Below, piece by piece: positions 5,207 through 48,122 of a stretch of DNA of 64,000 bases. The position numbers were made by a program, and so were the translations under genes. Origin of the DNA: Thermodesulfobacteriota bacterium. Its GTDB lineage: Bacteria; Desulfobacterota; Desulfomonilia; UBA1062. The stretch is taken from the NCBI GenBank assembly GCA_036834365.1, contig DAITOA010000013.1:141-64140 (forward strand), given 5' to 3'. Position 1 is the stretch's first letter, and every line of letters begins with the position of its first letter. Below the pieces are notes generated by a model, which did not search any database, had not been told where the DNA came from, and was given only the letters and a program-made list of their open reading frames with translations.

Positions 5207-6817
5207 ATGGGGAGCACTATGGGCAGATTCGATGCATTCACCTCCAAGGATTTTATAGAACAGGTCTCCATCCTCGGGTCTCTCGATCCTGCACGGGATC
5301 AAGATTCCATTCCCGATATCGTGGCGCTCCTGGGCAGGATACCGGAGCACGAGGCCATCATGCTGGTGATGAAGGACACCCTGAAGAAGCTGTTTTCGGG
5401 CAGCGAAGCCTCGACGGTGCGGTACCTCGCCGCCGGTGACCGGGAGATCCAGAAAATCTGCATCGAGGTGGCCGGCCGGGAAAGATTCGCTTCCGCAGCA
5501 GCGGCCCTGGAAGCCATCGAACGGCAGGCATCAGAAAAGAAGCACTACCGCATCGTCTTCGAGGTGATGAAGACGCTGGCCCAGATCCGACCGGAGGAAT
5601 CCATCGATCTGTTCAGAAAGCACGTGGATCACGAAGATTCCCTCATTGCATCTCTGTGCATCGAGACCCTCGGCGCACTGAACGACGCCCGGTCGTTCGA
5701 GCGCATGCACGGCATCATCATGGAAGCGGAGGATGACTCCCAAGGCGGCCTGTGCGACCTGCCGACAGCCAGCGCCATCAGGACCCTGGGCACATTCCAG
5801 GGCAGGGACGCCGTTGCCTTCTTCATCACCATGCTCCACCACAGGAACCCGGGGGTGCGCAGGGTGATCCACGAGGAGCTCTCCCGCAAGGGCATGGAGG
5901 CCGTGGACGCGCTCAGGGAAGTCTTCCGGGGAGACAGTTCCGACGCCAAGATATTCGCGGCAAACATCCTCGGTCTCATCGGGTCGAAGGAGGCGGCGGA
6001 CGTCCTCGTCCAGGCGCTGGATACGAACCGCAACGCCCATCCCAACATCCGGTATGCCATCTATGAGGCCCTCGGTTGCACCTCCGGCATGGCGGGCCTG
6101 GTCTGCCTGGCCGACGGGCTCGATGAGACGGACGGTATGGTCCTGCTGGCCGTGGTGACGGCCCTGGACATGCGGATGAACCAGTCGATCCTCGACCGGA
6201 TCTCCGAGACGATCAGGAAGGAAACCGGGCACGGCAGGAAGCTCGTGCAGGCGATCGTGGCATCCGGTGCCATGCATATCTTCGAGGGACTCCACCGTGG
6301 CGATGAGGCCATAGCGTCCATGCTGCTGGAAGAGATCAGGAATTCGGGCATCGGCGAGCACATCGCAGGGTACCGGACGATCCTGGAGGGGATGGACTCC
6401 GATCGCGCAAGGAACGACCTGCGGATTATCGATGGACTGCCCGCGAGAGAAGGTGAAAGGCGTATCCTGGCCGTGGACGACTCGAAGGCCATGCTCAACT
6501 TCTACAAGGGTGTGGCCGCTTCCCTGGGCATGGGCATCAGTACGGCCATGAACGGAAAGGAGGCCCTCGATGTCATTGCACTGGAGGAACGGTTCGACCT
6601 GATCATCACCGACATGAACATGCCGGTCATGGACGGGGTCGAGTTCACCGGTCATGTCAGGAGGGACCCGGCCCTTTCTGAGATCCCGATCATCATGATA
6701 ACCACCGAGTCCGAGCGTTCCCAGGAAGATCTGGCCCGCAAGGCCGGGGTGACCCACTTCATGCAGAAACCCTTCGACGCCGGGAAACTCATGGAGAGGA
6801 TCACCGGCTGCCTGTAG
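5207..6817 (+). CDS. HEAT/PBS-lyase-like repeat protein with a C-terminal response-regulator receiver (REC) domain
   Basis: Repeated helical units (DSLIASLCIETLGALND, PGVRRVIHEEL, AKIFAANILGLIGSKEAADVLVQAL, NIRYAIYEALG). The C-terminal ~120 aa is a REC domain (ILAVDDS...DLIITDMNMPVMDG...KPF). Start chosen at the internal ATG MGSTMGRF. Confidence 0.6.
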   Translation: MGSTMGRFDAFTSKDFIEQVSILGSLDPARDQDSIPDIVALLGRIPEHEAIMLVMKDTLKKLFSGSEASTVRYLAAGDREIQKICIEVAGRERFASAAAALEAIERQASEKKHYRIVFEVMKTLAQIRPEESIDLFRKHVDHEDSLIASLCIETLGALNDARSFERMHGIIMEAEDDSQGGLCDLPTASAIRTLGTFQGRDAVAFFITMLHHRNPGVRRVIHEELSRKGMEAVDALREVFRGDSSDAKIFAANILGLIGSKEAADVLVQALDTNRNAHPNIRYAIYEALGCTSGMAGLVCLADGLDETDGMVLLAVVTALDMRMNQSILDRISETIRKETGHGRKLVQAIVASGAMHIFEGLHRGDEAIASMLLEEIRNSGIGEHIAGYRTILEGMDSDRARNDLRIIDGLPAREGERRILAVDDSKAMLNFYKGVAASLGMGISTAMNGKEALDVIALEERFDLIITDMNMPVMDGVEFTGHVRRDPALSEIPIIMITTESERSQEDLARKAGVTHFMQKPFDAGKLMERITGCL

Positions 6818-7004
6818 GAGGGCGGGACCCCTCCGGAGATCCCGGCGGTCACCTCAGGGGCGTCATTGGAATTATTTTGGGCAAACATCAATCATTGCAT
6901 CATCCTATCCGGGAATGTGGTACATGTTTTGCTCAATATCGCCAAGAGGAGACGGACCGGCTCTCCAATAGTCAGGAATAGTACGCGAGGATACGAAGGA
7001 GACT

Positions 7005-7937
7005 ATGGGCACCAAACCAAAGAAGACAGGCAGGGCTTATATCTTCTATATCGCCTGTGTCGTGATGGCGCCGGTTCTGGTATGCGGGTGCAGTCGATTT
7101 CAGACCGGGTCAACCTTCAAGGAAGCGAATGAACTTTTCGGCCAGGGAGACTACGAGGCATCTCTGAAAACATATGAAGGAATCATTGAAAGGCATCCCT
7201 CGGCGGGAGACCGGGTTCTTTTCGAGATGGGGATCATTTACTCGTATCCCAGGAACGAGCAGAAAGACTACCGGAAATCTTTGGAGTGTTTTCAGGAACT
7301 CATAAAGAATTATCCCGAGAGCAGTTACAGATATGACAGTGAGAGGATGATCTTTCATATACAGAATGTCGTCCTGAAGGATCAGCGGATAGCCGAGCAG
7401 CAGACACTGATGGAGACTCTCCAACAGGAGCTTGAAAGCAAAGGGAATGAGATTGCTGCACTGCGGGAAGAAATTGAAGAGCTCCACCGGAAGGTCTCTT
7501 CACTGGAGCCGGGGCCGGCAGACAAGATCCTCATAGAGAAGAAAGAACGGAGATTGTCACTGATGGCAAAGGGCAGTGTCTTCAGGACCTACAAGATAGC
7601 CTTGGGGGGAAACCCGAATGGTCCGAAGGTAAGGCAGGGAGACAACAAAACCCCGGAAGGGACCTACATCATCGACTCAAGGAATATGGACAGCCGCTAC
7701 CACATCTCTCTTCACATTTCATATCCCAACGAGAGAGACAAACAACGGGCGAAAAAACTGGGCGTCCTGCCGGGCGGAGACATCATGATTCACGGCATCA
7801 AGAACGGATTTTCCATGGTCGGCGGACTGCATGCCGGGTCTGACTGGACGAAAGGGTGCATTGCCGTCACGGACGAAGAGATAGAAGAGATTGAAATGCT
7901 GGCCCCGAACGGTACGATTGTCGAGATAAGGCCATAG
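7005..7937 (+). CDS. Lipoprotein L,D-transpeptidase (YkuD/ErfK domain) with N-terminal TPR-like and coiled-coil regions
   Basis: AAGGAG RBS, signal peptide and lipobox (LVCGC). The YkuD catalytic domain has the conserved HG and active-site GCIA(V) motifs (YKIALGG...IMIHG...TKGCIAV). Lower GC than flanks. Confidence 0.75.
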   Translation: MGTKPKKTGRAYIFYIACVVMAPVLVCGCSRFQTGSTFKEANELFGQGDYEASLKTYEGIIERHPSAGDRVLFEMGIIYSYPRNEQKDYRKSLECFQELIKNYPESSYRYDSERMIFHIQNVVLKDQRIAEQQTLMETLQQELESKGNEIAALREEIEELHRKVSSLEPGPADKILIEKKERRLSLMAKGSVFRTYKIALGGNPNGPKVRQGDNKTPEGTYIIDSRNMDSRYHISLHISYPNERDKQRAKKLGVLPGGDIMIHGIKNGFSMVGGLHAGSDWTKGCIAVTDEEIEEIEMLAPNGTIVEIRP

Positions 7938-7957
7938 AGGACCCCATACGCGGAGCC

Positions 7958-9274
7958 ATGTGCAGAACGGTTGAACGCCCGATCCCATCCGGAAGGTTTC
8001 ATCTCATCGTCTTGTGCATACTCGTCTCATATCTCCAGGGATGTGCCGTAATGAACAGTATTCAGAAGATATCATCACCTTTCCCCGTCTATCCGGAAAA
8101 CCAGCTGGAACGGAACACGTTTTCGGTTGTGAAAGGAAGTGACGTCATCGGCCGGATGGCGATCATCAGGCTTGAAGAGGGCGATACCCTTCCGGACATC
8201 GCCCGGCACTTCAGCCTGGGAATCAATGCGGTCAATGCGGCCAATCCAGGGGTGGATGTGTGGGTACCTGATGCAGGAGGGCGTATCGTGCTGCCGCTGC
8301 GGTTCATTCTGCCGGATGCACCCAGAAAGGGTATCGTGATCAACCTGGCTGCCATGAGGCTCTTTCACTATAAAGGAGACAACGACGCACTCGTTGTGAC
8401 CACGTACCCGGTCGGCGTCGGCACCACGGAGCGACCCACCCCCACAGGCCAGATGCAGGTGGTGCGCAAGGTGACCCGGCCGACCTGGTATGTGCCCGCC
8501 TCCATTGCCGAGGATCATCGAAAAAAGGGAGATCCGCTTCCCGCTGCAGTTCTGCCGGGACCCCAGAATCCCCTGGGAGAATACGCGCTCTATCTGAGCA
8601 AGGCGAGTTATCTGATCCATGGCACCAATAAGCCGGCCAGCATCGGCCTGAATGCAACCAACGGCTGCCTGAGACTCTACCCGGAAGACGTGAAAAGGCT
8701 CTACGAGAATACGCCGGTTCACACACCCGTATGCATCGTCAACCAGCCATACCTCATAGGCCAGCGGAACGGGATCGTTTACATGGAGGTCCATGCGTCC
8801 CCGGAAGGCTCAGGGGCCGATGAGCTGGAAAAGATGTACAACAAGTTGAGAACCATTGAGAAGGTCTCCGGGCGTACGCTCGACTGGAAGAATATCGAGA
8901 GGACACTGTCGGAAGCCCGGGGGATTCCTGTGCCCATCCTGGAGATGGAACAGGGGAGATGGTTTGAGCCGACCATCGAAGTGATGCACCCGGGCACATT
9001 ATACGGGAGACCGGAAATTCCGGAATTGAACGCGGAGGCATGGTATGTCTGGGCTGCCGACCTGAACGATAGGACCGAAGCCTTGCGGATTGCCGCCATC
9101 ATTAGCCATCAGGGCCCGCCAATACCGGCACGTGTGATATCAAGGAGCAATGGCTACCGTGTCATCGCCGGCCCCTACAACGATATAAGCGAGGCCAAAG
9201 ATACGGTCAAACGACTGAAGATCGATCTGGAGATAGACGGTATCGTGATCGAACCCGCCGCGAAGCACCCCTGA
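7958..9274 (+). CDS. LysM + YkuD L,D-transpeptidase with C-terminal SPOR domain (lipoprotein signal)
   Basis: Lipobox YLQGC and a LysM-like segment (EEGDTLPDIARHFSLGINAVNAANPG). The YkuD domain carries LIHGTN...NGCLRL. The C-terminal ~75 aa is a SPOR-like fold (RVISRSNGYRVIAGPY...AKD). Confidence 0.75.
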   Translation: MCRTVERPIPSGRFHLIVLCILVSYLQGCAVMNSIQKISSPFPVYPENQLERNTFSVVKGSDVIGRMAIIRLEEGDTLPDIARHFSLGINAVNAANPGVDVWVPDAGGRIVLPLRFILPDAPRKGIVINLAAMRLFHYKGDNDALVVTTYPVGVGTTERPTPTGQMQVVRKVTRPTWYVPASIAEDHRKKGDPLPAAVLPGPQNPLGEYALYLSKASYLIHGTNKPASIGLNATNGCLRLYPEDVKRLYENTPVHTPVCIVNQPYLIGQRNGIVYMEVHASPEGSGADELEKMYNKLRTIEKVSGRTLDWKNIERTLSEARGIPVPILEMEQGRWFEPTIEVMHPGTLYGRPEIPELNAEAWYVWAADLNDRTEALRIAAIISHQGPPIPARVISRSNGYRVIAGPYNDISEAKDTVKRLKIDLEIDGIVIEPAAKHP

Positions 9275-9530
9275 TCAGGTTACAAAAAAGGTGCCGCTGT
9301 GTACGAACTTGTACATCTCTCAAAGGTCATGAATGGAAATTAACGTCCAATCGTGTAATATGTACGCGTCATACGTGTTGGCCTGCATATTGCTGTAAGA
9401 ATATCATGCAATTATTATATGAGAAGCCATGATAATGAAACCATTACCCCCGAAACAATCAATGACCCGGGGGGTAGACAGGCTCAGTTCGTTATCAAAC
9501 AATCCAAGCTGAATAGAACGGAGGTAAGGA

Positions 9531-9832
9531 TGAAAAAGATTCTATTGGGGATTTCCATGGTGATGGTACTCGCTCTCGGCATGTGGGGCTGCGCGACGAC
9601 CAGCGATATCGAGAGGGTCCAGGCGCAGGAAAAGGCGATCGATGCGAAAGCCGATCAGGCCATTCTGGATGCTCAGGCTGCCAAGGCGGCGGCTCAAGAG
9701 GCCCAGGCGAAGGCAGATGCCGCCACCGCCCGTGCCGAAGAAGCCGTGAGGAAGGCAGAGGAGAGGGAGCGGGCTGCGGAGGAGAAGCAGCAGCAGGCTG
9801 AAGCCCTTTTCCAGAAATCGATGAAGAAGTAA
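9531..9832 (+). CDS. Small Ala/Gln/Glu-rich coiled-coil (lipo)protein with C-terminal Lys-Lys; Braun-lipoprotein (Lpp)-like
   Basis: GGAGGT RBS 7 nt upstream. Signal peptide MKKILLGISMVMVLALGMWGC with a lipobox-like Cys, then ~75 aa of heptad-like Ala-rich helix, ending ...FQKSMKK. The longer ORF-track start (9419) lacks an RBS and signal logic. Confidence 0.6.
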
Positions 9833-9884
9833 GTCGGTATTTCAGATACACGCACCCATATCTTCATCTTCAAGGCTTCGACAG

Positions 9885-9917
9885 AGAAGTGGCCGGGTCT
9901 GAGACCCTGCCACTTCT
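9885..9917. terminator. Near-perfect 33-nt palindrome (nested hairpin) between convergent genes; likely bidirectional intrinsic terminator
   Basis: The sequence agaagtggccgggtctgagaccctgccacttct is self-complementary apart from a central loop and one mismatch. It is followed by a T-containing tract and lies between the 3' ends of the Lpp-like gene and the sulfatase gene. Confidence 0.45.
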
Positions 9918-9946
9918 TCCTTATAAACCCGACACGTACCCAGCCC

Positions 9947-11689
9947 TCAGTCCAGATCGAACCGATGGTTGAATGCCAGGAACCTCAGCCAGCTCCCCTG
10001 AACCTTGAGCTTGCCCGAGGCCAGGGCCGCCAGCGGGGTCGTCACCTTGGCCGCCATCTTCCGGTAGGTCAGGGCGTCCACGACGAGCGTGGCTACGGGC
10101 TCGGGCGTCCCGGGCAGCGGGTCCCCCTGAACCACCTCGGCGATACCGTTGCGCACTGTCACGATGAAGCGTCTCTGCTCGTCCGGGAACACGTAATACA
10201 CCGTCTCGTGCACGTCCATGGCCCTTTCCGGCACGAGCCTCGCAGCCATGATGGTGAAGATGGCATCCAGCGGGATATTGGCCACGACGTTCTCGTCCAG
10301 CCTTGCCTGGGCGGGCTTCTCGATGCCGTGCCGGATCTCGTAGGCAGATTCCAGGAGATAGCCCCGGCCGTTGAGGTTGTACAGGGTGGATGCCAGCCCC
10401 TCGTAGCCCCCGGCGAGCTTTTCGTCCAGTTTCCCCTTGAGGCTCCCGGTGGCCAGTCCGCTGTCCCTGAGCTTGGTGAGCAGGTGGATGGCCCAGCGGA
10501 AATCGCCGGTCGTCAGTGCTGCATCGGAGAGCTTCATGACCTGGTCGGCCCCGCCCATGAGCCTGACCTCCCTGCCCGCCGCATCACTGACCTTCATGGG
10601 GTAGAGCTTCTCCGGCCTCCCATCGAACCAGCCCAGGTTGTTGGTGTACACGGCCCGTGCGGACCAGTCCACCTGGCCGTAGAACTCGGTGGTGTAGGGG
10701 AGCCCGGCGAGGTGCGGCGGCAGCGTGACGGTCTCCGCTATGGCGTCCATGTCATACCCCATGTTCGCCAGCCTGACGGTCTCGTCCCTGACCCACTGGA
10801 TGGCGTCCCGGTAGTTGGTCAGGACCTCTGCAATATTCTGCGCACCGTGGACAGGCACGGTATGGCAGGGTACCAGGTGCTCGGGGTTCAGGGCACGCAT
10901 CTCGTCCAGGCTTTTGATCCATCCGTCGATGGGCCTCGGGCTGGCGCCGCGGATGGTGTAGAGGTTCGGGAAGGTCCAGTAGAAATTGTCGGCAGCGATC
11001 ACGGTCCGGTCCTGCGGTACCCAGATGACGAGCTGGTCGTGGGTCTCACCGGGCGCCTCGATGAGCCGGATCTCCAGCCCGCCGAAGACCAGGGTCTTTG
11101 TCCCGGAGAAGGTATTTGTGGGCAGGCGGATGCCCGCGCCCTCCTGGGCGGCCCTGATGTCGGTGCGCCTGCCGATGCCGTTACAGGGCAGGTCATCCAG
11201 GGAGACGTGATCCCCGAACTGACGCCTGCCGCGGATGGTCTCGATGGGCAGGAAGAGCTGGTACTGCTTGTAGAAATGGTCCGTAAAGGTGTCCGTGGCC
11301 CAGATCTGCGGCCTGTCCTCCATCCAGAGGGACGCACCCCCGATGTGGTCTATGTGACTGTGGGTGTAGATGACGGCTTTGACCGGTCCTGCCGGGACGT
11401 TCGCGAGGAGGTCCCGCTTAGCCGCCTCTCCCCTCTTCGGGCTCATGAGGGGGTCCACGATGACGGAGCCCTCGGGGGTATGGATGAGGATCTCGTTGGC
11501 CAGGTCATACCCGACGGCGGCCCACACGTGCTCGGAGATCCGCTCGATGCGTGGCTCTCCGATGAGTTCGCACTGCCTCCTGAGGAGGTCAGGACCTGGC
11601 AGGGCGTCCCTGATCTGCCGGGCCCCGGGTGAACAGCCGATACTCAGTGCAAGGGAAAGGATCAGGACGGTCAGGGAATGCCTTTTCAT
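9947..11689 (-). CDS. Alkyl/aryl-sulfatase of the metallo-beta-lactamase fold (SdsA1/BDS1-like), lipoprotein signal
   Basis: Signal peptide plus Cys (SIGCSP). MBL motif HSHIDHIGG, a long dimerisation region and a C-terminal SCP2-like domain. 580 aa. Confidence 0.75.
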   Translation of the reverse strand: MKRHSLTVLILSLALSIGCSPGARQIRDALPGPDLLRRQCELIGEPRIERISEHVWAAVGYDLANEILIHTPEGSVIVDPLMSPKRGEAAKRDLLANVPAGPVKAVIYTHSHIDHIGGASLWMEDRPQIWATDTFTDHFYKQYQLFLPIETIRGRRQFGDHVSLDDLPCNGIGRRTDIRAAQEGAGIRLPTNTFSGTKTLVFGGLEIRLIEAPGETHDQLVIWVPQDRTVIAADNFYWTFPNLYTIRGASPRPIDGWIKSLDEMRALNPEHLVPCHTVPVHGAQNIAEVLTNYRDAIQWVRDETVRLANMGYDMDAIAETVTLPPHLAGLPYTTEFYGQVDWSARAVYTNNLGWFDGRPEKLYPMKVSDAAGREVRLMGGADQVMKLSDAALTTGDFRWAIHLLTKLRDSGLATGSLKGKLDEKLAGGYEGLASTLYNLNGRGYLLESAYEIRHGIEKPAQARLDENVVANIPLDAIFTIMAARLVPERAMDVHETVYYVFPDEQRRFIVTVRNGIAEVVQGDPLPGTPEPVATLVVDALTYRKMAAKVTTPLAALASGKLKVQGSWLRFLAFNHRFDLD

Positions 11690-11768
11690 GGGACAGCCTC
11701 CTCTGTGATCAGGGACAGTATCATCATGTGTCCCCCCTCAAGAACTCTCGTATCGGGCGAAAGATCGG

Positions 11769-11839
11769 CCTGCCAGTTCCGTGCATCCCGCATGCTTCTT
11801 TAAGAACTCCGCATATGCGGGATGCACGGAACTGGCAGG
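11769..11839. repeat. 71-nt palindromic element: 25-bp perfect inverted repeat with a 21-nt loop; core GTGCATCCCG / CGGGATGCAC
   Basis: Arm 1 cctgccagttccgtgcatcccgcat (11769-11793) is the exact reverse complement of arm 2 atgcgggatgcacggaactggcagg (11815-11839). It is intergenic, downstream of the CorC-family gene and ~80 nt upstream of the sulfatase start. A related element is at 37065-37119. Confidence 0.8.
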
Positions 11840-11895
11840 TTCAATGTTCCTCATCTCAAGCTCGCGTCAGGGTGTCCTGCACCCGGCGAGCCCCC

Positions 11896-13146
11896 TCACT
11901 CCTTCATGGTCACCCGTACCCTCACGATGCGGTTGCCGCGCATGCGCTCGATGCGGAACTGCATGCCGTCGAAGGTCACGGTGTCGCCCTCCTCGGGTAT
12001 GCGGTCGAGCCGGTCGTAGAGGAGGCCGGAGAGCGAGTCGTAGTCGTCGGGGAACTCGTGGTCGATGTAGCGCTCCAGGTCCAGCATGCTCAAGCTGCCC
12101 GTGACCACGAAGCTCGTGCCGCTCACCGGCACGATGGGGGGTCGCACGATGTCGTGCTCGTCGGCGATGTCGCCCGTGATCTCTTCGATGATGTCCTCCA
12201 GCGTGATGCCGCCCTTCACCGTGCCGTACTCGTCCACCACGAAGGCCATGTGGAGGCGCATGTTCTGGAAGTCCACCAGCTGGGTGAAGATGGACTTGGT
12301 CTCGGGCACGAAGTGCGCCTCGCGCAGGCAGTCCTTCACGTGGAAGGCATCCCTCCTGTCGAGGTGGGCCCACACGTCCCGGATATGCAGGTACCCCACG
12401 ATGTTGTCCCGGTCGTCCTTGAAGACGGGATATCTGCTGTAGCTCTTGGTGGTGATCACCTGGACGATCTCGTCGAAGGTGCTGTCCATGGAGAGGAGGA
12501 CCATGTCTCCCAGGGGGAGCATGACCTTGCGAACGGGCACCTCGTCGAGGTCCATGATGGCGGCCATCATCTTGGCCTTGGACTCGGGGAGAAAGCCCTC
12601 CTTGTGCCCCATGGCGATGACCGAACCCACGTCCTCCTCGGAGAACTCGGGGTGCTTCCCGGGCTTCAGGCCGAAGAGCCTGAGCATCCCCTTGGCCATG
12701 AGGGTGAAGACCCTGACGAACGGGTTCAGCACCAGGATGATAATCCTCAGCGGCTGGGAGAAGAGCAGGGTGACCATGTCCGGCCGGTAGGCCGCAATGG
12801 TCTTGGGCGTGATCTCCCCGAAGATGAGCAGCAGCACGGTCATGGCAATGGTGGCATACAGGATGCCGCGCTCTCCGAAAAAGGAGATGAACAGCACCGT
12901 GGCAATGGCCGAGGCGAGCACGTTGACGAAGTTGTTGCCCAGGAGGATGGCGCTGATGAGCCGCTCGGGCTCCTTCAGAATATCCTCCACGAGTTTCGCC
13001 CGGGCGTTCCCCTTCTCCGCCAGGGTACGCAGGCGGAACCGGTTGGCCCTCATGTATGCGGTCTCGCTGCTTGAGAAGAAGGCGGATATCATGATGAGAA
13101 TGACGAGCACTGCGGTGTAGATGATCTCGTCTGCGCCGGTGATCAT
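11896..13146 (-). CDS. CNNM/CorC/HlyC-family transporter-associated protein (DUF21 membrane domain + CBS pair + CorC_HlyC domain)
   Basis: N-terminal four-helix DUF21 with the conserved SSSETA motif. Tandem CBS region and C-terminal transporter-associated domain. Confidence 0.75.
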   Translation of the reverse strand: MITGADEIIYTAVLVILIMISAFFSSSETAYMRANRFRLRTLAEKGNARAKLVEDILKEPERLISAILLGNNFVNVLASAIATVLFISFFGERGILYATIAMTVLLLIFGEITPKTIAAYRPDMVTLLFSQPLRIIILVLNPFVRVFTLMAKGMLRLFGLKPGKHPEFSEEDVGSVIAMGHKEGFLPESKAKMMAAIMDLDEVPVRKVMLPLGDMVLLSMDSTFDEIVQVITTKSYSRYPVFKDDRDNIVGYLHIRDVWAHLDRRDAFHVKDCLREAHFVPETKSIFTQLVDFQNMRLHMAFVVDEYGTVKGGITLEDIIEEITGDIADEHDIVRPPIVPVSGTSFVVTGSLSMLDLERYIDHEFPDDYDSLSGLLYDRLDRIPEEGDTVTFDGMQFRIERMRGNRIVRVRVTMKE

Positions 13147-13171
13147 ATCATTGTCCTACCCTTGAGAGGAT

Positions 13172-16045
13172 TCATTCGAACAGGACCATCTGGCCGGGCC
13201 GGGCCGCACGGTCGCGCTCCGTGGTCTCGCTGGCATACCCCGCAGGGATGCGTTGCACGAATTCAGATACCTCGCCCGCCGGACACACGAGATAGAGCGC
13301 GTCTTTCGTCCTGGTCATGGCTACATAGAAGAGGTTTTGCTCCTCCGTTATGTCCGCACCCGCCAGCGGGAAGATCCCCCTGGCGAGTCCCGTGACGAAC
13401 ACGCAGCCGAACTCCAGTCCCTTGGCGGCATGTGCGGTCAGGACGTGGACCCTCTCGGTTCCCAGGGCGCCCTGGTCGTTGCTCAGCCGGAGGAATTCGA
13501 CGAAGGCGCCCGTGTCGTCCCCGAAGAGACGGGCGTACGAGTAGAAGGGATGGCCGGCGTCGAGGCCGGGAAGCCGGAACATCCCCGAGGCATCGATCCT
13601 GGCTATCCTGTCCGTCAGCGGACCCGTACGGTCGTCGAGCAGCTCCCGGGCCTGCCCTTCCACACCCTTGACGAGCGTCTCCCAGCCCTCGCCGGTCAGG
13701 AGCGAGATACGTTCGCGGATGCCCTTCACCTCGGCCAGGGGCCGGGCATATGCGGTGTCACAGGGGATGCCCGCCCGTTCGAGGGCCTCCAGTACCTGGA
13801 TTGCCTGGCTCCGGGTACGTACGATGACGGCCATGTCGCTCAGGCCCATGTCGCCTTTCGCTGCATCCACGGACAGGTGGGAGAGCCCCCCGGCAAGGGC
13901 CTCGACCTCACGGGCGATGAAATCGTACGGCCTGCCCGTGCGCACGATCCGGACAGTCCCTCCGCCGGAGTCGGCCGTGACCGCTTCATGCCCGATGAAG
14001 GCGTTGGCCGCCCGTGCGATCCCTTTGCCGAAGCGGTATGAAGTCGCCAGGCGCATCCCGGCGCAGGCGGGATGATCCCGCAGGAAGTCGTCGAAGGAGG
14101 CCGGGCTGCTTCCCCGGAAGCCGTATATCGCCTGGTGCGGGTCGCCGATGACCATGACGCTGGAAGAGCCCCGGCTGAGCTTGGCGAGGAAGGCGTACTG
14201 GACCGGGTTGATGTCCTGGAACTCGTCCACCATGACATGGTCCCACCTCCCCTTCCATGCGCCGGCATCGACGAGCCGCATGGCCTCACCGATGAGCCCC
14301 TCGTAGGTATAGTACCCCTTCGCCTTCAGGACGGCAAGGAGCCCCTCCTGCTCCCGGTCGAGCGGAGCGGCCGTGCTCTGCCGGAACATGAGATCCGTCA
14401 CCCATGCCTTCACATCCTTGTCGACGGCCGGGGATGCAACTTTCTCCAGCGTCTCCTCGTCGGCCACCTCGAAGGCGATGCCCGCGTCCCGCATGATCCG
14501 CGCCGCCAGGGCATGGAAGGTACAGACCTCGACGGACGCGTCCCCGAGCCTCTCCGTAATCTCCCGCGCCGCGCGGGTGGTAAAGGTGACGGCCAGGATA
14601 TCCTTTTCTCCTCTGTCGAGGAGCATCCTGATGCGCTCGACCAGCACGCGGGTCTTGCCTGTGCCGGGCCCCGCGACGACCGCCAGCGGGCCTTCCCGCC
14701 AGGCAGCCGCCTGCTGCTGCTCCGGGTTCAATACCGTCTTCTTGCCGGTCGCCGCAGGCGGTTCTTCCACCTTCTTTCTCCTGCCTGAGCGCTTCCGCGC
14801 AGGCACCCCCTCGATGCCTTTGGTGAAGAGCATGTCCTGCTCGTTGTCCGCAAAGACCCGCACCCTGCCGAATGTGCCGTCGTACCCGGCTTCCTTGTGC
14901 ACCTCGCCCGCACGCATGCGCCTCACGGCCAGGGCCAGGGTCTCCCCTGCCACCGAGGCAATCTCGTCGAGGCCGGCATCGAGGAGCAGGGGCAGCTCTC
15001 CGCCGAGACGACCGGTGATCTTCTCATGGACCTCCATCACCCTCTTCGTGGGGGATGCGACCTGCATGATCTCGGCCATGATCTCGGCCAAGGGGATGAG
15101 CGGGAAGAACGGTTTCGCGCTTGAAGGCTTCTCCCCCTCGGAACGCTCCGCGAGCTCCTCCACCCGGTGCAGCACGCCCACGGTGAGCGCTCGTCCGCAC
15201 ACCGGGCACCTGCCCTTGACCTCCCTGGTCCGGTGGGGCTCCAGGACAACCCCGCAGTCCCGGTGCCCGTCCAGGTGGTACTTGCCCTCCTCGGGGAAGA
15301 ATTCCACGGTCCCCACCAGGCCGTCGCCCGTGGCCATGGCCCTGCGGATCGCGTGGTAGTCCAGCGGGGTGTCGAAGACCGTCGCCTCCCGTCCCAGCTT
15401 GTCCGCGGAATGGGCGTCCGAGCAGGAGACGAGGCGGTAGCGGTCCAGGCTCTTCACCATCCAGTTCATGGGCGGGTCCGAGGAGAGCCCCGTCTCCACG
15501 GCGAAGATGTAGGGCTCCAGGTCCTGATAACACTCGGCGATCGAGTCGAAGCCGCTCTTGGATCCCAGGGCAGAGAACCACGGGGTCCAGATGTGGGCCG
15601 GGATCAGGAAGGTTCCCTCGCCCGCCTCCAGCACGACTTCCAGGAGGTTGCGCGAGGTGATGCCCAGGATGGGCCTGCCGTCGGAGAGAATGTTGCCGAT
15701 GGCGGCGAGCGAGGCGGAGATTCTCTTGGCCGAGGCGATGTCCGGCGCCCCGATCACGTGGTGCACCTTGCGCACCTTGTCCCCCTGCTTGTAGATGGTG
15801 CTGATCTCGCCCGTGAGGATGAACCGGGTCGGGCAGTCGCTTTCCCTGAGCCGGTACAGGCCGGGTTCGGACTCGACGAGCTCCTCCTCGATCTCCTTCA
15901 TCCAGGCGGGATGGGTGAGGTCCCCGGTGCCCAGCACGCTGATGCCCTTGCGGACGGCACCCGCCGCAAGCGCCCGAATGGTGAGGCCGGAGCTCGTGGC
16001 ACGGGAGTGGCGGGAGTGTACGTGCAGGTCACAGTAGAATTTCAT
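13172..16045 (-). CDS. Fusion protein: N-terminal PHP-family phosphoesterase (EndoQ/COG1379-like) + Zn-ribbon + C-terminal UvrD/PcrA-family SF1 helicase
   Basis: Starts MKFYCDLHVHSRHS (PHP metal-binding His cluster), then a CPVCG zinc-ribbon-like segment. Residues ~430-957 carry the Walker A AGPGTGKT, DEFQD, a YRFG motif and the C-terminal LTAHAAKGLEF...FYVAMTRTK helicase motifs. 26-nt gap from the CorC-like gene on the same strand. Confidence 0.7.
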   Translation of the reverse strand: MKFYCDLHVHSRHSRATSSGLTIRALAAGAVRKGISVLGTGDLTHPAWMKEIEEELVESEPGLYRLRESDCPTRFILTGEISTIYKQGDKVRKVHHVIGAPDIASAKRISASLAAIGNILSDGRPILGITSRNLLEVVLEAGEGTFLIPAHIWTPWFSALGSKSGFDSIAECYQDLEPYIFAVETGLSSDPPMNWMVKSLDRYRLVSCSDAHSADKLGREATVFDTPLDYHAIRRAMATGDGLVGTVEFFPEEGKYHLDGHRDCGVVLEPHRTREVKGRCPVCGRALTVGVLHRVEELAERSEGEKPSSAKPFFPLIPLAEIMAEIMQVASPTKRVMEVHEKITGRLGGELPLLLDAGLDEIASVAGETLALAVRRMRAGEVHKEAGYDGTFGRVRVFADNEQDMLFTKGIEGVPARKRSGRRKKVEEPPAATGKKTVLNPEQQQAAAWREGPLAVVAGPGTGKTRVLVERIRMLLDRGEKDILAVTFTTRAAREITERLGDASVEVCTFHALAARIMRDAGIAFEVADEETLEKVASPAVDKDVKAWVTDLMFRQSTAAPLDREQEGLLAVLKAKGYYTYEGLIGEAMRLVDAGAWKGRWDHVMVDEFQDINPVQYAFLAKLSRGSSSVMVIGDPHQAIYGFRGSSPASFDDFLRDHPACAGMRLATSYRFGKGIARAANAFIGHEAVTADSGGGTVRIVRTGRPYDFIAREVEALAGGLSHLSVDAAKGDMGLSDMAVIVRTRSQAIQVLEALERAGIPCDTAYARPLAEVKGIRERISLLTGEGWETLVKGVEGQARELLDDRTGPLTDRIARIDASGMFRLPGLDAGHPFYSYARLFGDDTGAFVEFLRLSNDQGALGTERVHVLTAHAAKGLEFGCVFVTGLARGIFPLAGADITEEQNLFYVAMTRTKDALYLVCPAGEVSEFVQRIPAGYASETTERDRAARPGQMVLFE

Positions 16046-42140: not shown

Positions 42141-43572
42141 TTACTGACCGTCCCAGCCGGCAAGCCTGGCCCAGAGCCACCAGGCCGCGTAGGCCTTCAT
42201 GTTGGCGTTGAGCGGCTCGGAGTGGGCCGAGGAGCATTCGTACCAGTCGTCACCCTCGACGTGGGAGTCCTGCCACTCCTGGGCCCAGTTGGCATCGGGA
42301 TCGGTGTCACTGTAATAGTTGCATGCATCGTCCGCGTAGTGCGAGAGGAACTCGTTCCCGTCCGGGTCGTAGCTCTCGATGTCCGCGAAGTCATAGAGGA
42401 CCCTGCCGCCCTCCCGGCAATACTCCCTGATCTGCTCGTTGCGCTGGTGCAGGTTGCCCTCGATCCCGGTCCCGTTCAGGTGGCCGGTCATGTACACGAA
42501 ACGCACGTCCGGGTAGTCCGTCTCAAGGCCGTCCATGAGGGACAGGTAGGTCTCGATGTTCTCCTCGGTGGTGTCCGCCTGGCCGCACCAGGACCAGATG
42601 ATCACGTTCACCTCCGGGTTGGCGTCCAGGTAGGTCCGGGTGGCCTCTGCCCATGCCTCGCGGTCCGGGTTGCCGAGGTCAGAGGCGCCCGAGAAGGGCG
42701 AGTCCCTCAGGTCCAGGGCCCCGCCGGTGCCGCCGCCGGCGTAGGCATAGAGGTCGCCCTTCCAGTCGGCGAGCCCGGTCATGCCCGTGGTGAGCTGGCT
42801 GCCGTGGGAGGTGTGGCCGTAGGCGATGTGGAGGTCCTCCTTGGCCTGGGTGATCCATGCCTCAGGAATGGCCTCCAGGTCGATGCAGGTGTGGTCGATG
42901 ATCAGGGCATCGCTTTCGGTCTGCGACGAGGCCTCGGTCGTGGCGCTCACCTCGTCGGAGTTCGCGATGTCGCCGTCACCCACGAACGCGTACACGCGAT
43001 AGGTATAGCTTGTCCCGGCATCGAGGCCCGTGTCCGGGTACGAGTCCTCGCCCGCTTCGAGCTCGGCCACCTCGGCGAAGTCGGTGCTTGAGGTCTTCCG
43101 CTCCACGCGGAAACCCTCCTCTCCGCCGGCCGTGTAGTCCCAGCTGAGGTCGATCCCGCCCGATGACACCACCTGCGCCGTCAGGACGATGGCCTCCAGG
43201 GTGGAAACCTCCACCTCTGTCGAGCAGACAATGTCCCCGGACGCACCCACAGCCCAGACCCGGTAGGCGTACCCGGTGCCAGCAGTGAGGCCGGTGTCCG
43301 TGTACGACAGGACCGATGCGCCCACCGTGGCGACCTCTTCATAGTCGCCGCCGGATTCGGACCGCTCGATGCGGTACCCGGTGACGTTATCTGAAGTGCC
43401 CTCCCACTCGAGGGTCACCTCGGAGGACAAGGCGGACAGGGCCTGCAGGGTGACGGAGGATTTGTCGGAAGAGCCGTCGGAGCTGTTGCAGGCGGTGATG
43501 AAGATGGCGATAGCGACCAGGAGTACCGGGATGAGGAAAGCCCTGATATGTGCGGTACGGGATGATTGCATC
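42141..43572 (-). CDS. Lipoprotein with two fibronectin type III repeats and an uncharacterised Trp/Asp-rich C-terminal domain
   Basis: Signal peptide plus lipobox (AIFITAC). Two ~90-aa Fn3-like repeats (TLEWEG...GYRIERS...YAYRV ; LSWDY...GFRVERK...YTYRV). The ~280-aa C-terminus (HIAYGHTSHGSQ, VIIWSWCGQ, MTGHLNG) has no domain I can assign. Confidence 0.6.
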
Positions 43573-43909
43573 TCTTCTACCTCCTGTTTCAGGGAACTCG
43601 CGGGGTGTGCTTGGCATGCGGCCCTGAGGGTAATGAACAATATGTTACGTTAGACCTATCGGCCGGGGGAAGGCAAGAGTAAGGATTACATTTTTGATTT
43701 TGAGGGGATAGCGGTATGGTAATCGTGGGCGGGTGACCTCGAACCCTCATACAGGGGATGGGTCCCTGGATGTTTCATCCGGTAATCTCTCCGTATCTGA
43801 TCTTCAAGAGAGCTTGAGTCACCGGAGTCGTCTTCCATGCGTTCCGTTAAGAGGTTACGATCGATTCATCGTTGCAATTTACGGCAATCAGTTTTACAAT
43901 GATATTATA

Positions 43910-44734
43910 ATGTTATATAATGCATATCAATTTGTTATCCTCCTCATTATAGAAACATTTTTCTTAACCGTGCCCGGCCTGGCATTCGATGATAACGCAG
44001 CGCAACCTCGGTCCCACGATATCGTGAAAACAACGGGCACCATATTGCCGAGAGCGGAACGACCCGGTCTTGCCGTATTGAGGTTCACAAACACCACGCC
44101 CAAGGAACGGGCGATTAATTTCCAGCCCTGGGAATACGGTATTGCCGCCCTGCTCATTACCGACCTGGAAGAAACCGCCATGTTCAACATCGTAGACCGG
44201 GAGAGGATCAATGACATCCTTAAGGAGATCAGGTTACAGAAATCCGGTCTTGTAGATCCGAACTCCGCTGTGGCCATCGGGAAATTGGTCGCTGCAAAAT
44301 ATATTCTCACAGGGACCTTCATGGAGATGAAAGGTCAACTGAAAATTTCCGGACAGGTATATTCCGTGGAGAAAGGCATCCAGCTGGGAGCAACTTCAGT
44401 CACCGGGAAAACAGAGAATTTTTTCCTTTTGGAGAAGGACCTCTTCACAAAAGTCACCCACATCATGGGGGTCGTGCTGGATGACGAAAAACAAAACAAG
44501 ATACTGAACACCTTTGAGACGAAATCCGTATACGCATCACTGAAAAACTATGCCGGGGAAATTGCGTTGATGATGGCAGCCGAATTGAAGAAGGTGGGAA
44601 AGGCGGAGGAGTCGGACCGCCTTGAAAAGGATGCCAAACTGAAGTTCGAAGAGGCCTTGGAATACGATCCGGACTATGAACGGGCAAAGAGAAATCTCGT
44701 CAAGCTCGTGATGGCCATCCCCATGACGTTATGA
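43910..44734 (+). CDS. Periplasmic CsgG-family (CsgG/LpoB-like alpha/beta domain) protein
   Basis: Signal peptide without a lipobox. Core AVLRF.N.T...GIAALLITDLEE...FNIVDRERINDILKEIRLQKSGLVD...AIGKLVAAKYILTGT resembles Pfam CsgG-like domain proteins. Lower GC. Confidence 0.5.
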   Translation: MLYNAYQFVILLIIETFFLTVPGLAFDDNAAQPRSHDIVKTTGTILPRAERPGLAVLRFTNTTPKERAINFQPWEYGIAALLITDLEETAMFNIVDRERINDILKEIRLQKSGLVDPNSAVAIGKLVAAKYILTGTFMEMKGQLKISGQVYSVEKGIQLGATSVTGKTENFFLLEKDLFTKVTHIMGVVLDDEKQNKILNTFETKSVYASLKNYAGEIALMMAAELKKVGKAEESDRLEKDAKLKFEEALEYDPDYERAKRNLVKLVMAIPMTL

Positions 44735-44796
44735 TGCAGCACGAGAGCTGAAGCACTGATGGATGAGATGCAATAAGCACGACCAGGAGTTATGAA

Positions 44797-45633
44797 ATGA
44801 AAAAAACATACGGCATTATGTTTTTCCTTGTTATCTCCATGATTTTCCCCCTCGAGAAGGCGGAATCGGGAACGTTCTTCGTAGGGACAAAGTTCTGGTA
44901 TGCCAGCTGGGACTCAGGGATCCTGGACTGGATGGGCAAGGAAATTTCCGCCCAGATGAATGCGAACGGCTGGGATGTCACGTCCGATGCGGAAAACGGG
45001 TCCGGTTACCTGGCCGGGCCTCTCCTCGGGTATCAGAGCACGGATGGACTGTGGTCCGTGAGCCTTGCCCCCATGGTGCTCAGCGACTTCTCGCAGGAGT
45101 TGGATCTTATGGTCGACCAGATAGGATTCACCTTTGATACCAAGGTGGATGTAACTCGCTACGATTATGATCTGGCCTTTGCCTATTCCCTCTCTCCCTT
45201 GAGAAGATGGAGCCCTTTCTTCGAATACTGCAGGGTATTCGCGGGATACAAGTATCAGGTCGTCAACATGGACATCATCGTCCGATCGAGTGGAGGCATC
45301 CCGACGGATGCACAGAAGACAGAGAACGACTACACGGTCAATATGCCGACAATCGGTCTTGGTGTGACCTATCCCGTGACTCATAAGATTGCCCTGGGGC
45401 TGCAGGGGGGATTAGGACTTGCCTTCTTCGACACCCCTGCGGATACGGACAGCTCAACCACCCTGAATGCCGAAGCAAGCCTGAGCCTTGTGCCGATGGA
45501 TAAGATGATAATCCAGCTGGGGTACAGGTATCAGGAATGGAAATATAACCCTTCAGATCCTGAATATCCTGTGGATTCTTCATCCAAGGATGTCACCGCC
45601 GGACCGATACTGACAGCTGTCTATACCTTTTAG
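44797..45633 (+). CDS. Outer-membrane beta-barrel protein (OMP_b-brl-like, ~12 strands) ending in aromatic residue
   Basis: AGGAG RBS and signal peptide. Alternating hydrophobic/aromatic beta-strand pattern, Gly/Tyr-rich, with C-terminal ...AVYTF as an OMP targeting signature. Confidence 0.55.
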   Translation: MKKTYGIMFFLVISMIFPLEKAESGTFFVGTKFWYASWDSGILDWMGKEISAQMNANGWDVTSDAENGSGYLAGPLLGYQSTDGLWSVSLAPMVLSDFSQELDLMVDQIGFTFDTKVDVTRYDYDLAFAYSLSPLRRWSPFFEYCRVFAGYKYQVVNMDIIVRSSGGIPTDAQKTENDYTVNMPTIGLGVTYPVTHKIALGLQGGLGLAFFDTPADTDSSTTLNAEASLSLVPMDKMIIQLGYRYQEWKYNPSDPEYPVDSSSKDVTAGPILTAVYTF

Positions 45634-45703
45634 GACCCCCGGTACGCGTTTTCATTGTCATCACGGTAAACAGCGTTTATACTCCGATATGAAAGGATCT
45701 CCC

Positions 45704-46816
45704 ATGAACGGCATCCTTGAAACACTGTCAGGGATGAAGACCGGCGGCAGACGACTCATCGGCTGCTTCCCCCTCTACCCGCCCCTCGAGCTCCTCCACT
45801 CCTTCGGGCTCACCCCCATCACCCTCTGGGGCATGAGGGATGCCGTCAGGGACTACGGCACCGGCGACCGCCACGTCCAGAACTATGCATGCCAGGTGGC
45901 CAGGGCGCTCACCGGGTTCGTCATAGACAACGGCCCGAGCCTCTTCGACGCCCTGTTCATGTACAACGCCTGCGACACGTTGCGGAACCTGCCCGAGATC
46001 GTCCATGCCGGCATCAGGGAGACCGGGGCCGACCTCCCCATTTTCCGCCTCCACGTGCCCGCGCTGAGCCCGGACCGCACCGGGGCGAAGGACTACCTGA
46101 GAGACCGTCTCCGCCTCCTCATGGCGGACCTTGAGCGCTTCACGGGCAGGCCTTTTTCTGCAAAGGCGTTTGCCGAGAGCGCAGCGCTTTACGCCAAACA
46201 ACGCTCGTTCTGCCGGGAGATCGAGGCGCTGTGCACCGGGGGCAAGATGCCCTTCGCAGCGGCCGCACCCCTCCTGGAACGCGCCCACTTCATGGACGTC
46301 CGGGAGCACATCGCCCTGCTGGAGGAGGCGGTCACACACCACGCCGGCCTGCCCGAAAACGGCTCGGGCGTGCGGGTCTTGGTGAGCGGCATCCAGGCCC
46401 CGCCCGTTGACCTGCTCAGGGTAATGGACGCCTCCGGGCTCACGGTGGCGGCCAACGACATCGCCACCATGGCTCGATCGTACGGAACCAGCCCCACGGG
46501 CAGCGACCCCCTGGACTACTACGCCGCATTCTACTTCGACCACCACCCCTGCACCACCATCCTGCCTGCAGGGGACAGAAGGATCAAGCTCCTCGGGCAA
46601 CGCGTGCAGGAAGACGGCATCCGGGGTGTCGTCTTCTTCGGCGAGAAGTTCTGCGAGTACGAATACTTCGAGATCCCCTACCTCCAGGAGACACTCAACA
46701 CCCGGGGCGTGGCCACCCTCTTCCTGGAGCTCGGCGCCGACGACCTGGCGAACCTCATGCCGCTGAGGACCCGCATCGAGGCCTTTGCCGAGATCGTCAG
46801 GGGCGACAGTGTCTGA
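45704..46816 (+). CDS. 2-hydroxyacyl-CoA dehydratase / benzoyl-CoA-reductase B/C-family subunit (HgdB/BcrB-like)
   Basis: HGD-D family pattern with conserved Cys (NACDTLRNL, EKFCEYEY). 370 aa. Confidence 0.65.
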   Translation: MNGILETLSGMKTGGRRLIGCFPLYPPLELLHSFGLTPITLWGMRDAVRDYGTGDRHVQNYACQVARALTGFVIDNGPSLFDALFMYNACDTLRNLPEIVHAGIRETGADLPIFRLHVPALSPDRTGAKDYLRDRLRLLMADLERFTGRPFSAKAFAESAALYAKQRSFCREIEALCTGGKMPFAAAAPLLERAHFMDVREHIALLEEAVTHHAGLPENGSGVRVLVSGIQAPPVDLLRVMDASGLTVAANDIATMARSYGTSPTGSDPLDYYAAFYFDHHPCTTILPAGDRRIKLLGQRVQEDGIRGVVFFGEKFCEYEYFEIPYLQETLNTRGVATLFLELGADDLANLMPLRTRIEAFAEIVRGDSV

Positions 46817-46829
46817 CCGGGAGGACGGC

Positions 46830-48122
46830 ATGCCACATGAAACACCCACAGGCGGATTCAAAAAGACATCTTCGGGCAAGAGGCTCACCGGGATCATCAT
46901 GAACGACTACCTGCAGCTCCACCAGCGGGCAGCCGAGGGGGCCTTCGTGGTGTGGATCGCCATCGTGGTCCCGGCCGAGCTCTTTGCGGGCTTCGACAAT
47001 GTGGTCTATGCCGTTCCCGAGAGCCATGCGGCCATGAGCGCCGGCAAGGGGGTCGGGGCCGTTCAGTGCGGTAAGGCCGAGAAAGCGGGCTACTCGTCCG
47101 ACCTGTGCTCGTACGCCCGCATCGACCTGGGCACAGCCATGGACGGGGGGAAGGACTCGCCCTCCTTCGGCATGCCCAGGCCGCACCTGCTCGTGAGCAA
47201 CAACAACAACTGCTCGCTGCTGGCCAAGTGGTTCGACGTGTACCATAGGGTGTGGGGCATTCCGCACTTCATCCTGGACATCCCGTTCTGCTACGAGGAA
47301 CAGACACCGCAGGACTTCGCCTACATCCGGGGTCAGTTCGCCGACCTCGTCCGCACCATCGAAGGGCTCTCGGGACAGAGGTTCGACGAGGCCAAGGCCC
47401 GTGAGGCGGTGTGCCTGTCCGGCGAGGCGCTCAGGGAGTGGAAGCGCTTCACCTCCCTGGCGCAGCACAGGCCCTCGCCCATCACGGCCTTCGACTCCTT
47501 CGTGCAGATGGCCCCCATCCTGACCTCCCGCGGCACGCAGCAGCTGGCGGACCACTACCGGGCCCTGGCCGACGAGACCGAGGAGCAGATGAGGCAGGGC
47601 GTCTACCCGGTGCCCGACGAACGCTACCGGCTCCTGTGGGACAACATTGCGCCCTGGCACCAGCTCAGGAAGATGTCCGGCAGGCTCGCCTCGCTGGGGG
47701 CCAACATCACTACGGCCAGCTACACCTACTGCATCGGCTCCCTGGAAGGGACCTTCGACATGTACGCCTACGACGGGGGAGACCCCTTCGCCTGGCTGGC
47801 CAGGCTGCAGAACTTCTCGGTCTGCCCCCACGGCATGGCGCTGAGGGCCCGGGCCATGAGGCAGGCGGTCGAGCGCAATGGCATCGACGGCGTGGTCTTC
47901 GCCAGCAACCGCAGCTGCAAGGTATACTCTCTCATGCAGATGGATCAGATGCGCTTCGTCCGGGACGAGCTCGGAATTCCCGCGGTGATGATCGACGTAG
48001 ACCACGCCGACGAACGCAAGTACAGCGAGGAGGCGTCCTTCGTGAGGCTCGAGGCCCTGCTCGAGACCATCGATGCCGGCCGGAGAGGTAACGGAATGAA
48101 TTCAGGCAACCCTTCAATTTGA
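46830..48122 (+). CDS. 2-hydroxyacyl-CoA dehydratase-family subunit (HgdA/BcrC-like)
   Basis: Partner HGD-D family protein (SDLCSYARI, NNCSLL, SNRSCKVYS). 13-nt gap from the preceding gene. Confidence 0.65.
   Translation: MPHETPTGGFKKTSSGKRLTGIIMNDYLQLHQRAAEGAFVVWIAIVVPAELFAGFDNVVYAVPESHAAMSAGKGVGAVQCGKAEKAGYSSDLCSYARIDLGTAMDGGKDSPSFGMPRPHLLVSNNNNCSLLAKWFDVYHRVWGIPHFILDIPFCYEEQTPQDFAYIRGQFADLVRTIEGLSGQRFDEAKAREAVCLSGEALREWKRFTSLAQHRPSPITAFDSFVQMAPILTSRGTQQLADHYRALADETEEQMRQGVYPVPDERYRLLWDNIAPWHQLRKMSGRLASLGANITTASYTYCIGSLEGTFDMYAYDGGDPFAWLARLQNFSVCPHGMALRARAMRQAVERNGIDGVVFASNRSCKVYSLMQMDQMRFVRDELGIPAVMIDVDHADERKYSEEASFVRLEALLETIDAGRRGNGMNSGNPSI

Follow-up and report, generated by a model that had tools for sequence, protein, structure and literature searches.

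In CsgG, the transmembrane hairpins TM1 and TM2 build a 36-stranded pore, and rings are common among proteins of the CsgG/PelC fold (9-mers in CsgG, 12-mers in PelC). Slam combines a periplasmic tetratricopeptide repeat (TPR) element with an outer-membrane barrel and is encoded beside its client lipoprotein. Porin-cytochrome conduits (MtrAB-MtrC; Pcc of Geobacter) are encoded by operons that join a barrel gene to a gene for a multihaem lipoprotein cytochrome, and the exopolysaccharide exporter PelB-PelC (PDB 9h80, 5t11) brings together a small lipoprotein, PelC, TPRs and a separate outer-membrane barrel. Here, we describe a two-gene cassette in a 64-kb stretch of DNA from a Thermodesulfobacteriota bacterium (contig DAITOA010000013.1; the whole stretch is hereafter called the window), which encodes an exported protein of the CsgG and PelC fold, A, followed by an outer-membrane beta-barrel, B. 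With a probability of roughly 0.45, we read the pair as an uncharacterised barrel-plus-adaptor module serving outer-membrane lipoproteins, of which the window would hold a horizontally acquired orphan copy.

The nearest functional analogies of the pair may be Slam and the porin-cytochrome complexes, to whose barrels B is unrelated in sequence and compared with which it is far smaller. The 14-stranded DUF560 barrel of Slam and its N-terminal TPR are parts of a single polypeptide, whereas the TPR-like element and the barrel considered here belong to two proteins. Sequence and profile comparisons show no similarity of A or B to Slam, with no DUF560 match, and the comparison is an analogy only. 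Barrels of the MtrB type have 20-26 strands and sheathe a periplasmic decahaem protein, whereas B has 10 strands and cannot hold a cytochrome. Loci of A and B resemble the conduits in joining barrel and cytochrome lipoprotein genes in one operon, but the partner of B is TolB-N/TPR-like instead of a cytochrome, and the window has no cytochrome gene. Among known architectures where a protein of A's fold serves a barrel belonging to another polypeptide, PelBC is the nearest by analogy. In PelB, however, TPRs and barrel form one protein, whose barrel is a polysaccharide porin of larger size, and A/B are accompanied by neither pel nor glycosyltransferase genes. With CsgG, A shares the N-terminal alpha/beta core and, in most of its relatives, the lipoprotein nature; it differs in carrying a C-terminal TPR-like domain in place of the pore-forming hairpins. 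The same alpha/beta fold is found in the N-terminal domain of TolB, in LpoB and in the periplasmic domain of CadC, which also resembles A in its two-part layout of alpha/beta subdomain and helical bundle. A has neither the beta-propeller of TolB, nor the penicillin-binding protein context of LpoB, nor the DNA-binding and transmembrane parts of CadC.

A conserved gene pair in an imported cassette

A survey of genomes and metagenomes gave 47 informative, non-redundant loci from Thermodesulfobacteriota/'Deltaproteobacteria', Nitrospirota and Spirochaetota/Leptospirales metagenome-assembled genomes. In 41 of them A directly precedes B on the same strand, usually at a distance of 46-92 nucleotides (nt); for the window, the original prediction had counted a gap of 62 nt, which is exact. 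Pairwise distances for A and for B are correlated (r 0.86 over 30 loci), and none of 2000 permutations in a Mantel test reached this value. A and B are a conserved pair, and a dedicated one, as had been proposed from the window alone. The distant 'CsgG plus long TPR' relatives of A (L027-L029) are paired with other CsgG-like genes and have no barrel neighbour; the A-B link is therefore specific to A's subfamily. Six loci hold a second, divergent A-like gene of the CsgG fold on the opposite strand, downstream of B or of a permease gene, and tandem B genes or B fragments occur in three loci (Table 1).

In the window, the pair occupies an islet across which the GC content drops from 0.62-0.68 to 0.46-0.53 (~43600-45600). 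The cassette proper (43852-45633, 1782 nt) has a GC content of 0.496, the minimum for its size in the 64 kb (z -3.7; mean 0.613 and standard deviation 0.031 across segments of that size). GC at third codon positions (GC3) is 0.61 in A and 0.65 in B, compared with 0.86-0.90 in five neighbours (cysK, nifS, an fn3 lipoprotein gene and two HGD-D genes), and the difference is therefore one of codon usage, beyond an effect of amino-acid composition. The AT-rich islet of foreign composition announced by the original prediction is thus borne out, the run that had drawn attention lying at 43892-43933. The second most AT-rich stretch of the window, at 6000-10000 (GC about 0.55), contains two open reading frames for lipoproteins in which the HG...GC(I/L)R motif of YkuD-type L,D-transpeptidases was recognized by eye.

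Comparison with other genomes delimits the cassette. In the closest relative, L059, A and B are 79% and 81% identical to their counterparts in the window, and the DNA alignment between the two (79% identity) starts at 43852 and ends precisely with the stop codon of B, comprising 58 nt upstream and both genes. The spacer of intermediate GC that separates the cassette from the start of the divergent fn3 lipoprotein gene is not kept in L059, with which blastn homology begins only at 43852. The flanks are wholly unrelated among the window, L001 and L059; moreover, the synteny fn3-nifS-nifU is kept in related genomes, where other genes occupy the position of A/B. Given the low GC and GC3, the homology ending at the cassette borders, the differing flanks and the relatives that keep the synteny without the pair, the islet is a horizontally acquired two-gene cassette (its own likely promoter, A and B) and a real, non-random feature. 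The pair of L001 likewise has a GC of 0.38 against 0.52 in its surroundings; in most other genomes its GC is host-like. At the borders of the islet we found no tRNA gene or fragment, no Rfam match, no meaningful direct or inverted repeats and no integrase.

The 58 nt ahead of A hold a likely promoter. The promoter scan found the hexamers TTGCAA and TACAAT separated by a 17-nt spacer, and L059 keeps TTGCAA-N17-TACAAT followed by 9 nt and the ATG, an arrangement that suggests a promoter function. The ATG of A lies 9 nt past the -10 hexamer and has no Shine-Dalgarno sequence, and the mRNA of A is therefore probably leaderless or nearly so. A second sigma-70 match, TTTACA-N17-TATAAT (11/12 consensus), was rejected as the promoter of A because it overlaps the start codon and is not the arrangement conserved in L059; if used, it would place the transcript start inside the signal-peptide coding region. 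A GTG at 43733 was rejected as the start of A, since the homologous proteins in L001 and L059 have the same signal peptide and the corresponding Met as their first residue, and since the DNA of L059 is similar only from 43852 onwards. The intergenic spacer carries the Shine-Dalgarno sequence AGGAG 7 nt ahead of the ATG of B, and a terminator scan of this spacer found none; A and B are therefore probably co-transcribed. Another promoter-like site lies within the 55-nt gap past B, which is directly followed by two overlapping HGD-D genes (2-hydroxyacyl-CoA dehydratase/benzoyl-CoA reductase type).

Folds of the two proteins

A begins with a predicted signal peptide of the signal peptidase I (SPase-I) type (amino acids (aa) 1-25), with a cleavage site between LTVPGLA and FDD and no lipobox Cys. 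A disordered linker of about 20 residues (~21-42) leads to an alpha/beta domain of the CsgG-N/TolB-N/LpoB/PelC type (~50-186), followed by a TPR-like helical domain (~190-268) and a disordered, invariant tail, AIPMTL. The AlphaFold2 model, built with 54 homologues and numbered as the protein minus 1, has a mean confidence (pLDDT) of 80. In hidden Markov model searches, A matches Pfam CsgG (PF03783; 1e-11, 45 bits for a cutoff of 20.8) and Pfam LpoB (PF13036; 1e-7, 32.5 bits for a cutoff of 22.3), and positions 212-258 match TPR proteins in a profile search of the PDB. Foldseek retrieved the N-terminal part of CsgG (4uv2, E 4e-5; also 4uv3), TolB-N, PelC (TMt 0.55-0.60), LpoB and GNA1162. The original description of A as a secreted CsgG/LpoB-like alpha/beta protein without lipobox and with a C-terminal helical extension therefore holds. 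A lipobox Cys (L-x-x-C) is present in most of the aligned relatives; the clade of the window has the SPase-I type signal in its place. The family alignment is almost without variation at the motif ETxSVDASLKNYSGE and at the C-terminus DPxYxRAKxNL...AIPxTL, and this conservation suggests that the two are likely interaction sites.

The same description had started from the notion that CsgG-like domains nucleate outer-membrane channels, as in curli, and had proposed that the pair may be a secretion or surface-assembly unit. On a channel reading of this kind, oligomers of A would make or nucleate a channel as CsgG does and, with B, secrete a substrate by a curli-like (type VIII) or other dedicated route. 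Such a channel would agree with the Pfam CsgG match above threshold, with the name 'CsgG/HfaB family protein' that A bears at NCBI and with the ring-forming habit of proteins of its fold. This step nevertheless fails on the structure of A. The match covers only positions 8-102 of the 210 of the CsgG profile, and the alignment with E. coli CsgG (E 0.26, marginal) ends at CsgG residue 138, where TM1 starts. In place of TM1, A has only the two residues KG between the flanking strands, and its third strand runs straight into a helix, leaving no TM2. Having no equivalent of either transmembrane hairpin, A shares the CsgG fold yet cannot form a CsgG-type pore, and the reading as such a pore is already largely refuted. 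Furthermore, the A of the window is not lipidated, csgE/F and amyloid subunit genes are absent from the window and from about 50 related loci, and no csgA/B/E/F-like or amyloid gene lies in any neighbourhood. A dedicated secretion channel is thus highly improbable.

The Pfam LpoB match above threshold, the disordered linker ahead of the globular domain and the lipoprotein nature of most relatives could instead be taken to mean that A is an activator of peptidoglycan synthases, for which B would serve as the tether at the outer membrane and whose target across the periplasm would be a penicillin-binding protein. Against the NCBIfam LpoB equivalog (TIGR02722), however, A scores 28.5 bits for a cutoff of 110, LpoB itself lacks a TPR domain and works with no barrel, and no penicillin-binding protein or cell-wall gene is conserved beside the pair. 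We give this activator role hardly any credence.

For B, the AlphaFold2 model (49 homologues) has ten long strands, with a pLDDT of 89.5 and a predicted template-modelling score (pTM) of 0.82. A conserved helix (aa 41-56) lies in the first extracellular loop, the remaining loops are short, and the C-terminal beta-signal is VYTF, in keeping with the barrel ending in YTF that had been expected. By this model, B is an outer-membrane beta-barrel. B itself matches no Pfam or NCBIfam family, and a search of its sequence against the PDB returned nothing. Across its family, OMP_b-brl is matched by 17 of 49 members (best 1.4e-8); sub-threshold matches comprise local ones to MtrB_PioB (17 of 49), others to the C-terminus of the GSU2204 CXXCH protein family (19 of 49) and to TIGR04219, and, in a few relatives, to omptin. 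An exhaustive profile search at E up to 1e-3 delineated a family of 599 clusters (50% identity), almost all of whose members are stand-alone proteins of 260-340 aa; no fusion to another domain was found among the best 150 of these clusters.

The top Foldseek matches of B are all 10-stranded, namely the Legionella MOMP 'porin I' (Lpg2961, PDB 9nh1), Pla/OmpT and OpcA, with template-modelling (TM) scores of 0.45-0.56 and only 10-13% identity to these nearest PDB folds. The Dot/Icm-associated porin I of Legionella has been described as a 10-stranded MOMP barrel (PMC12501162). Its comparison with B gives TM 0.52-0.56 at 10-12% identity, and B differs in its conserved loop-1 helix and its short remaining loops. 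MOMP associates laterally with a larger envelope machine. Polar and hydrophobic faces alternate along the strands of B, and nearly all of its conserved residues (K32, R121, D123, D125, K152, Q154, Q203, N224, E226, Q240, R244, Q246 and D265) lie on the polar, Gly-rich faces. The lumen of B is therefore a constrained surface.

These properties also bear on an alternative in which B is a MOMP-like solute porin and A a soluble or lipid-anchored plug or regulator that binds the opening of the barrel towards the periplasm; co-regulation as envelope genes would then be all that links the pair to its cytochrome, permease and cyclase neighbours. The best structural match of B is indeed the Legionella MOMP barrel, its lumen is polar, conserved and Gly-rich, and many loci, the window included, have no client gene. 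One distant relative of B even bears the NCBI name 'Lpg1974 family pore-forming outer membrane protein', although neither B nor this relative gave an NCBIfam or Pfam match. Yet ten-stranded barrels of the OmpT and OpcA type have little or no open pore, the loop-1 helix of B may fill its lumen, and a dedicated, co-diverging periplasmic partner would be unusual for a general porin. Since about half of the loci also have a tetrahaem lipoprotein gene as the same-strand neighbour just upstream, we regard a small regulated pore as unlikely.

Tetrahaem lipoproteins as candidate clients

The recurring theme in the loci is a third, lipidated protein rich in beta-sandwich domains. In 21 of the ~39 loci with enough upstream DNA, the gene that immediately precedes A codes for a lipoprotein in which four CXXCH motifs fall within about 100 residues, a c3-sized tetrahaem region with a weak Cytochrom_CIII match. 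This protein usually also carries Ig_AIR9 or FN3-type repeats, and its conserved C-terminal domain of about 130 residues has a PPC-like pattern. In L015, the tetrahaem lipoprotein gene is followed directly by B, with no A; in two loci, two cytochrome lipoprotein genes stand in tandem. Loci of the spirochaete type have, inside or just after the pair, a gene for an FN3-type lipoprotein (L018, L020, L054) or for a small lipoprotein (L022).

The original prediction had advised looking for a cargo gene near the pair; the tetrahaem lipoprotein gene is a plausible one in about half of the other loci, and the window has none. A search of the window for a cytochrome, or for a homologue of the C-terminal domain of the client, found none, and the copy of the window is therefore an orphan. 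A local client was sought in the lipoprotein encoded by the adjacent, divergent fn3 gene, in which the lipobox FITAC and a pair of fn3 domains are combined with a C-terminal domain some 260 aa long. We rejected it because its homologues keep fn3-nifS-nifU without A/B, its GC3 is host-like and its C-terminal domain belongs to a very large multi-phylum family. Thousands of proteins from many phyla contain this domain at 65-70% identity, and some of them have type IX secretion system (T9SS) sorting domains; it is probably an extracellular enzyme domain lacking a Pfam model. The synteny of the fn3 gene with nifS/nifU is conserved in L057 and L058, and its adjacency to the cassette is probably accidental.

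Table 1. Coordinates of the cassette, its surroundings in the window and additional features of related loci
Locus	Feature	Position	Strand	Remarks
Window	Upstream region with likely promoter	43852..43909	+	Promoter scan; arrangement conserved in L059
Window	-35 hexamer	43872-43877	+	TTGCAA
Window	-10 hexamer	43895-43900	+	TACAAT
Window	Gene A	43910..44734	+	274 aa; Pfam, family alignment, AlphaFold2, Foldseek and TPR profile matches
Window	Intergenic spacer	44735..44796	+	62 nt; Shine-Dalgarno sequence for B at 44785-44789
Window	Gene B	44797..45633	+	278 aa; signal peptide ~aa 1-24; predicted 10-stranded outer-membrane beta-barrel
Window	Spacer of intermediate GC	43641..43851	.	GC profile
Window	Second sigma-70 match	43893-43921	+	Rejected as promoter of A
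Window	Promoter-like site past B	45655-45683
Window	fn3 lipoprotein gene	42141-43640	-
Window	Two overlapping HGD-D genes	45689-48122	+
Window	Two lipoprotein open reading frames	7005-7937; 7958-9274	+
L031	Divergent A-like gene	2210-2482	-
L033	Divergent A-like gene	2284-2550	-
L035	Divergent A-like gene	1219-1482	-
L036	Divergent A-like gene	2440-2673	-
L040	Divergent A-like gene	2042-2308	-
L043	Divergent A-like gene	972-1169	-
L014	Tandem B genes or fragments	8001-9053
L041	Tandem B genes or fragments	610-1890
L044	Tandem B genes or fragments	1556-3118
L030	Tandem cytochrome lipoprotein genes	160-2230
L049	Tandem cytochrome lipoprotein genes	2328-4905
L005	FlgT_N/CHASE2 set	8857-13482
L025	FlgT_N/CHASE2 set	6882-11491
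L050	FlgT_N/CHASE2 set	6668-10980
L049	FlgT_N gene alone	6694-7806

A possible module for outer-membrane lipoproteins

Based on this gene context, and in particular on the recurring lipidated third protein, the pair would serve lipoproteins at the outer membrane. B, a 10-stranded barrel inserted in the outer membrane, would act as a membrane anchor or a narrow conduit. A, exported to the periplasm as a lipoprotein in most relatives and by way of an ordinary signal peptide in the clade of the window, would act as an adaptor. Its domain of the TolB-N/CsgG-N type, its TPR-like hairpins and the invariant tail at its C-terminus would be its points of contact with the periplasmic side of B. Together, they would anchor a client lipoprotein at the outer membrane, or assemble or expose it there, the client being in most cases a tetrahaem cytochrome. 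In the commonest setting, the pair is the downstream part of an operon starting with the tetrahaem Ig/FN3 lipoprotein gene, with a different lipoprotein in spirochaete-type loci; the orphan of the window may serve a lipoprotein whose gene lies elsewhere, or may act solely as a small gated pore. Of the secretion or surface-assembly unit first envisaged, a surface-assembly accessory remains as the leading hypothesis, on the strength of gene context in other genomes, whereas the mechanism by analogy with CsgG is not supported.

A number of observations weigh against this lipoprotein-serving module. We infer the A-B complex, the client relationship and its direction of action from gene context, and the association with cytochromes could come from shared regulation instead of physical partnership. 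A folded protein would not fit through a barrel of 10 strands, so that 'export' would need an unusual mechanism. About 40% of the loci lack a client gene in their vicinity, among them the window and its two closest relatives, L001 and L059, and six loci have B without A. In addition, an ArsP_1 permease gene (motif PVCSCAVIPL) recurs in at least 11 loci, standing beside B in either orientation (L007, L008, L010, L012, L015, L026, L030, L033, L034, L036 and L042), and points to a role other than client service; in L025, such a gene lies about 5 kb downstream, adjoining an ArsR-type regulator. Finally, a search of the literature on the pair, on the OscEFG proteins of Geobacter and on CsgG-like proteins together with cytochromes found nothing relevant.

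To these must be added the genes past B in one clade. In L005, L025 and L050, B is followed by a set comprising a FlgT_N-like protein of about 450 aa, a CHASE2 cyclase of the adenylate/guanylate type and a second FlgT_N protein, and in L049 only a FlgT_N gene follows; linked to the pair, these genes may constitute a signalling set of the envelope. Such neighbours would fit an envelope sensing module, in which A would read a signal at the outer membrane, by way of B or of a redox lipoprotein, and relay it to transducers of the inner membrane, for example CHASE2 cyclases. The 'TolB-like plus TPR' architecture of A is that of the periplasmic sensor domains of CadC-type regulators, cyclases and kinases. 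Its best whole-protein fold match by Foldseek is the periplasmic domain of CadC (TMq 0.46-0.50), and it has a weak match to the TIGR04510 cyclase family. A nevertheless lacks any transmembrane or output domain, and the cyclase set, absent from the window, is limited to a few loci within one clade, which makes a sensing role very doubtful.

The module serving outer-membrane lipoproteins is therefore the reading that we carry forward, and its significance is smaller for the window itself, a recently imported orphan without the usual partner, than for the family. B defines a barrel family of about 600 clusters at 50% identity that has no Pfam model, and the label 'CsgG/HfaB family protein' is misleading for the subfamily of A, for which no CsgG pore is possible. 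A bolder proposal, which we consider quite unlikely, is that A/B form the core of an unrecognised and widespread device of Thermodesulfobacteriota, Nitrospirota and Spirochaetota that holds or delivers surface lipoproteins and that, with a tetrahaem client, would amount to a minimal, non-Mtr electron conduit. How lipoproteins, including redox cytochromes, are placed and held at the outer membrane is poorly understood outside model Proteobacteria, especially in spirochaetes and in sulfate-reducing and syntrophic Desulfobacterota. A small, mobile and tightly linked barrel-adaptor pair found near genes for tetrahaem and FN3 lipoproteins is a concrete candidate for such a device.

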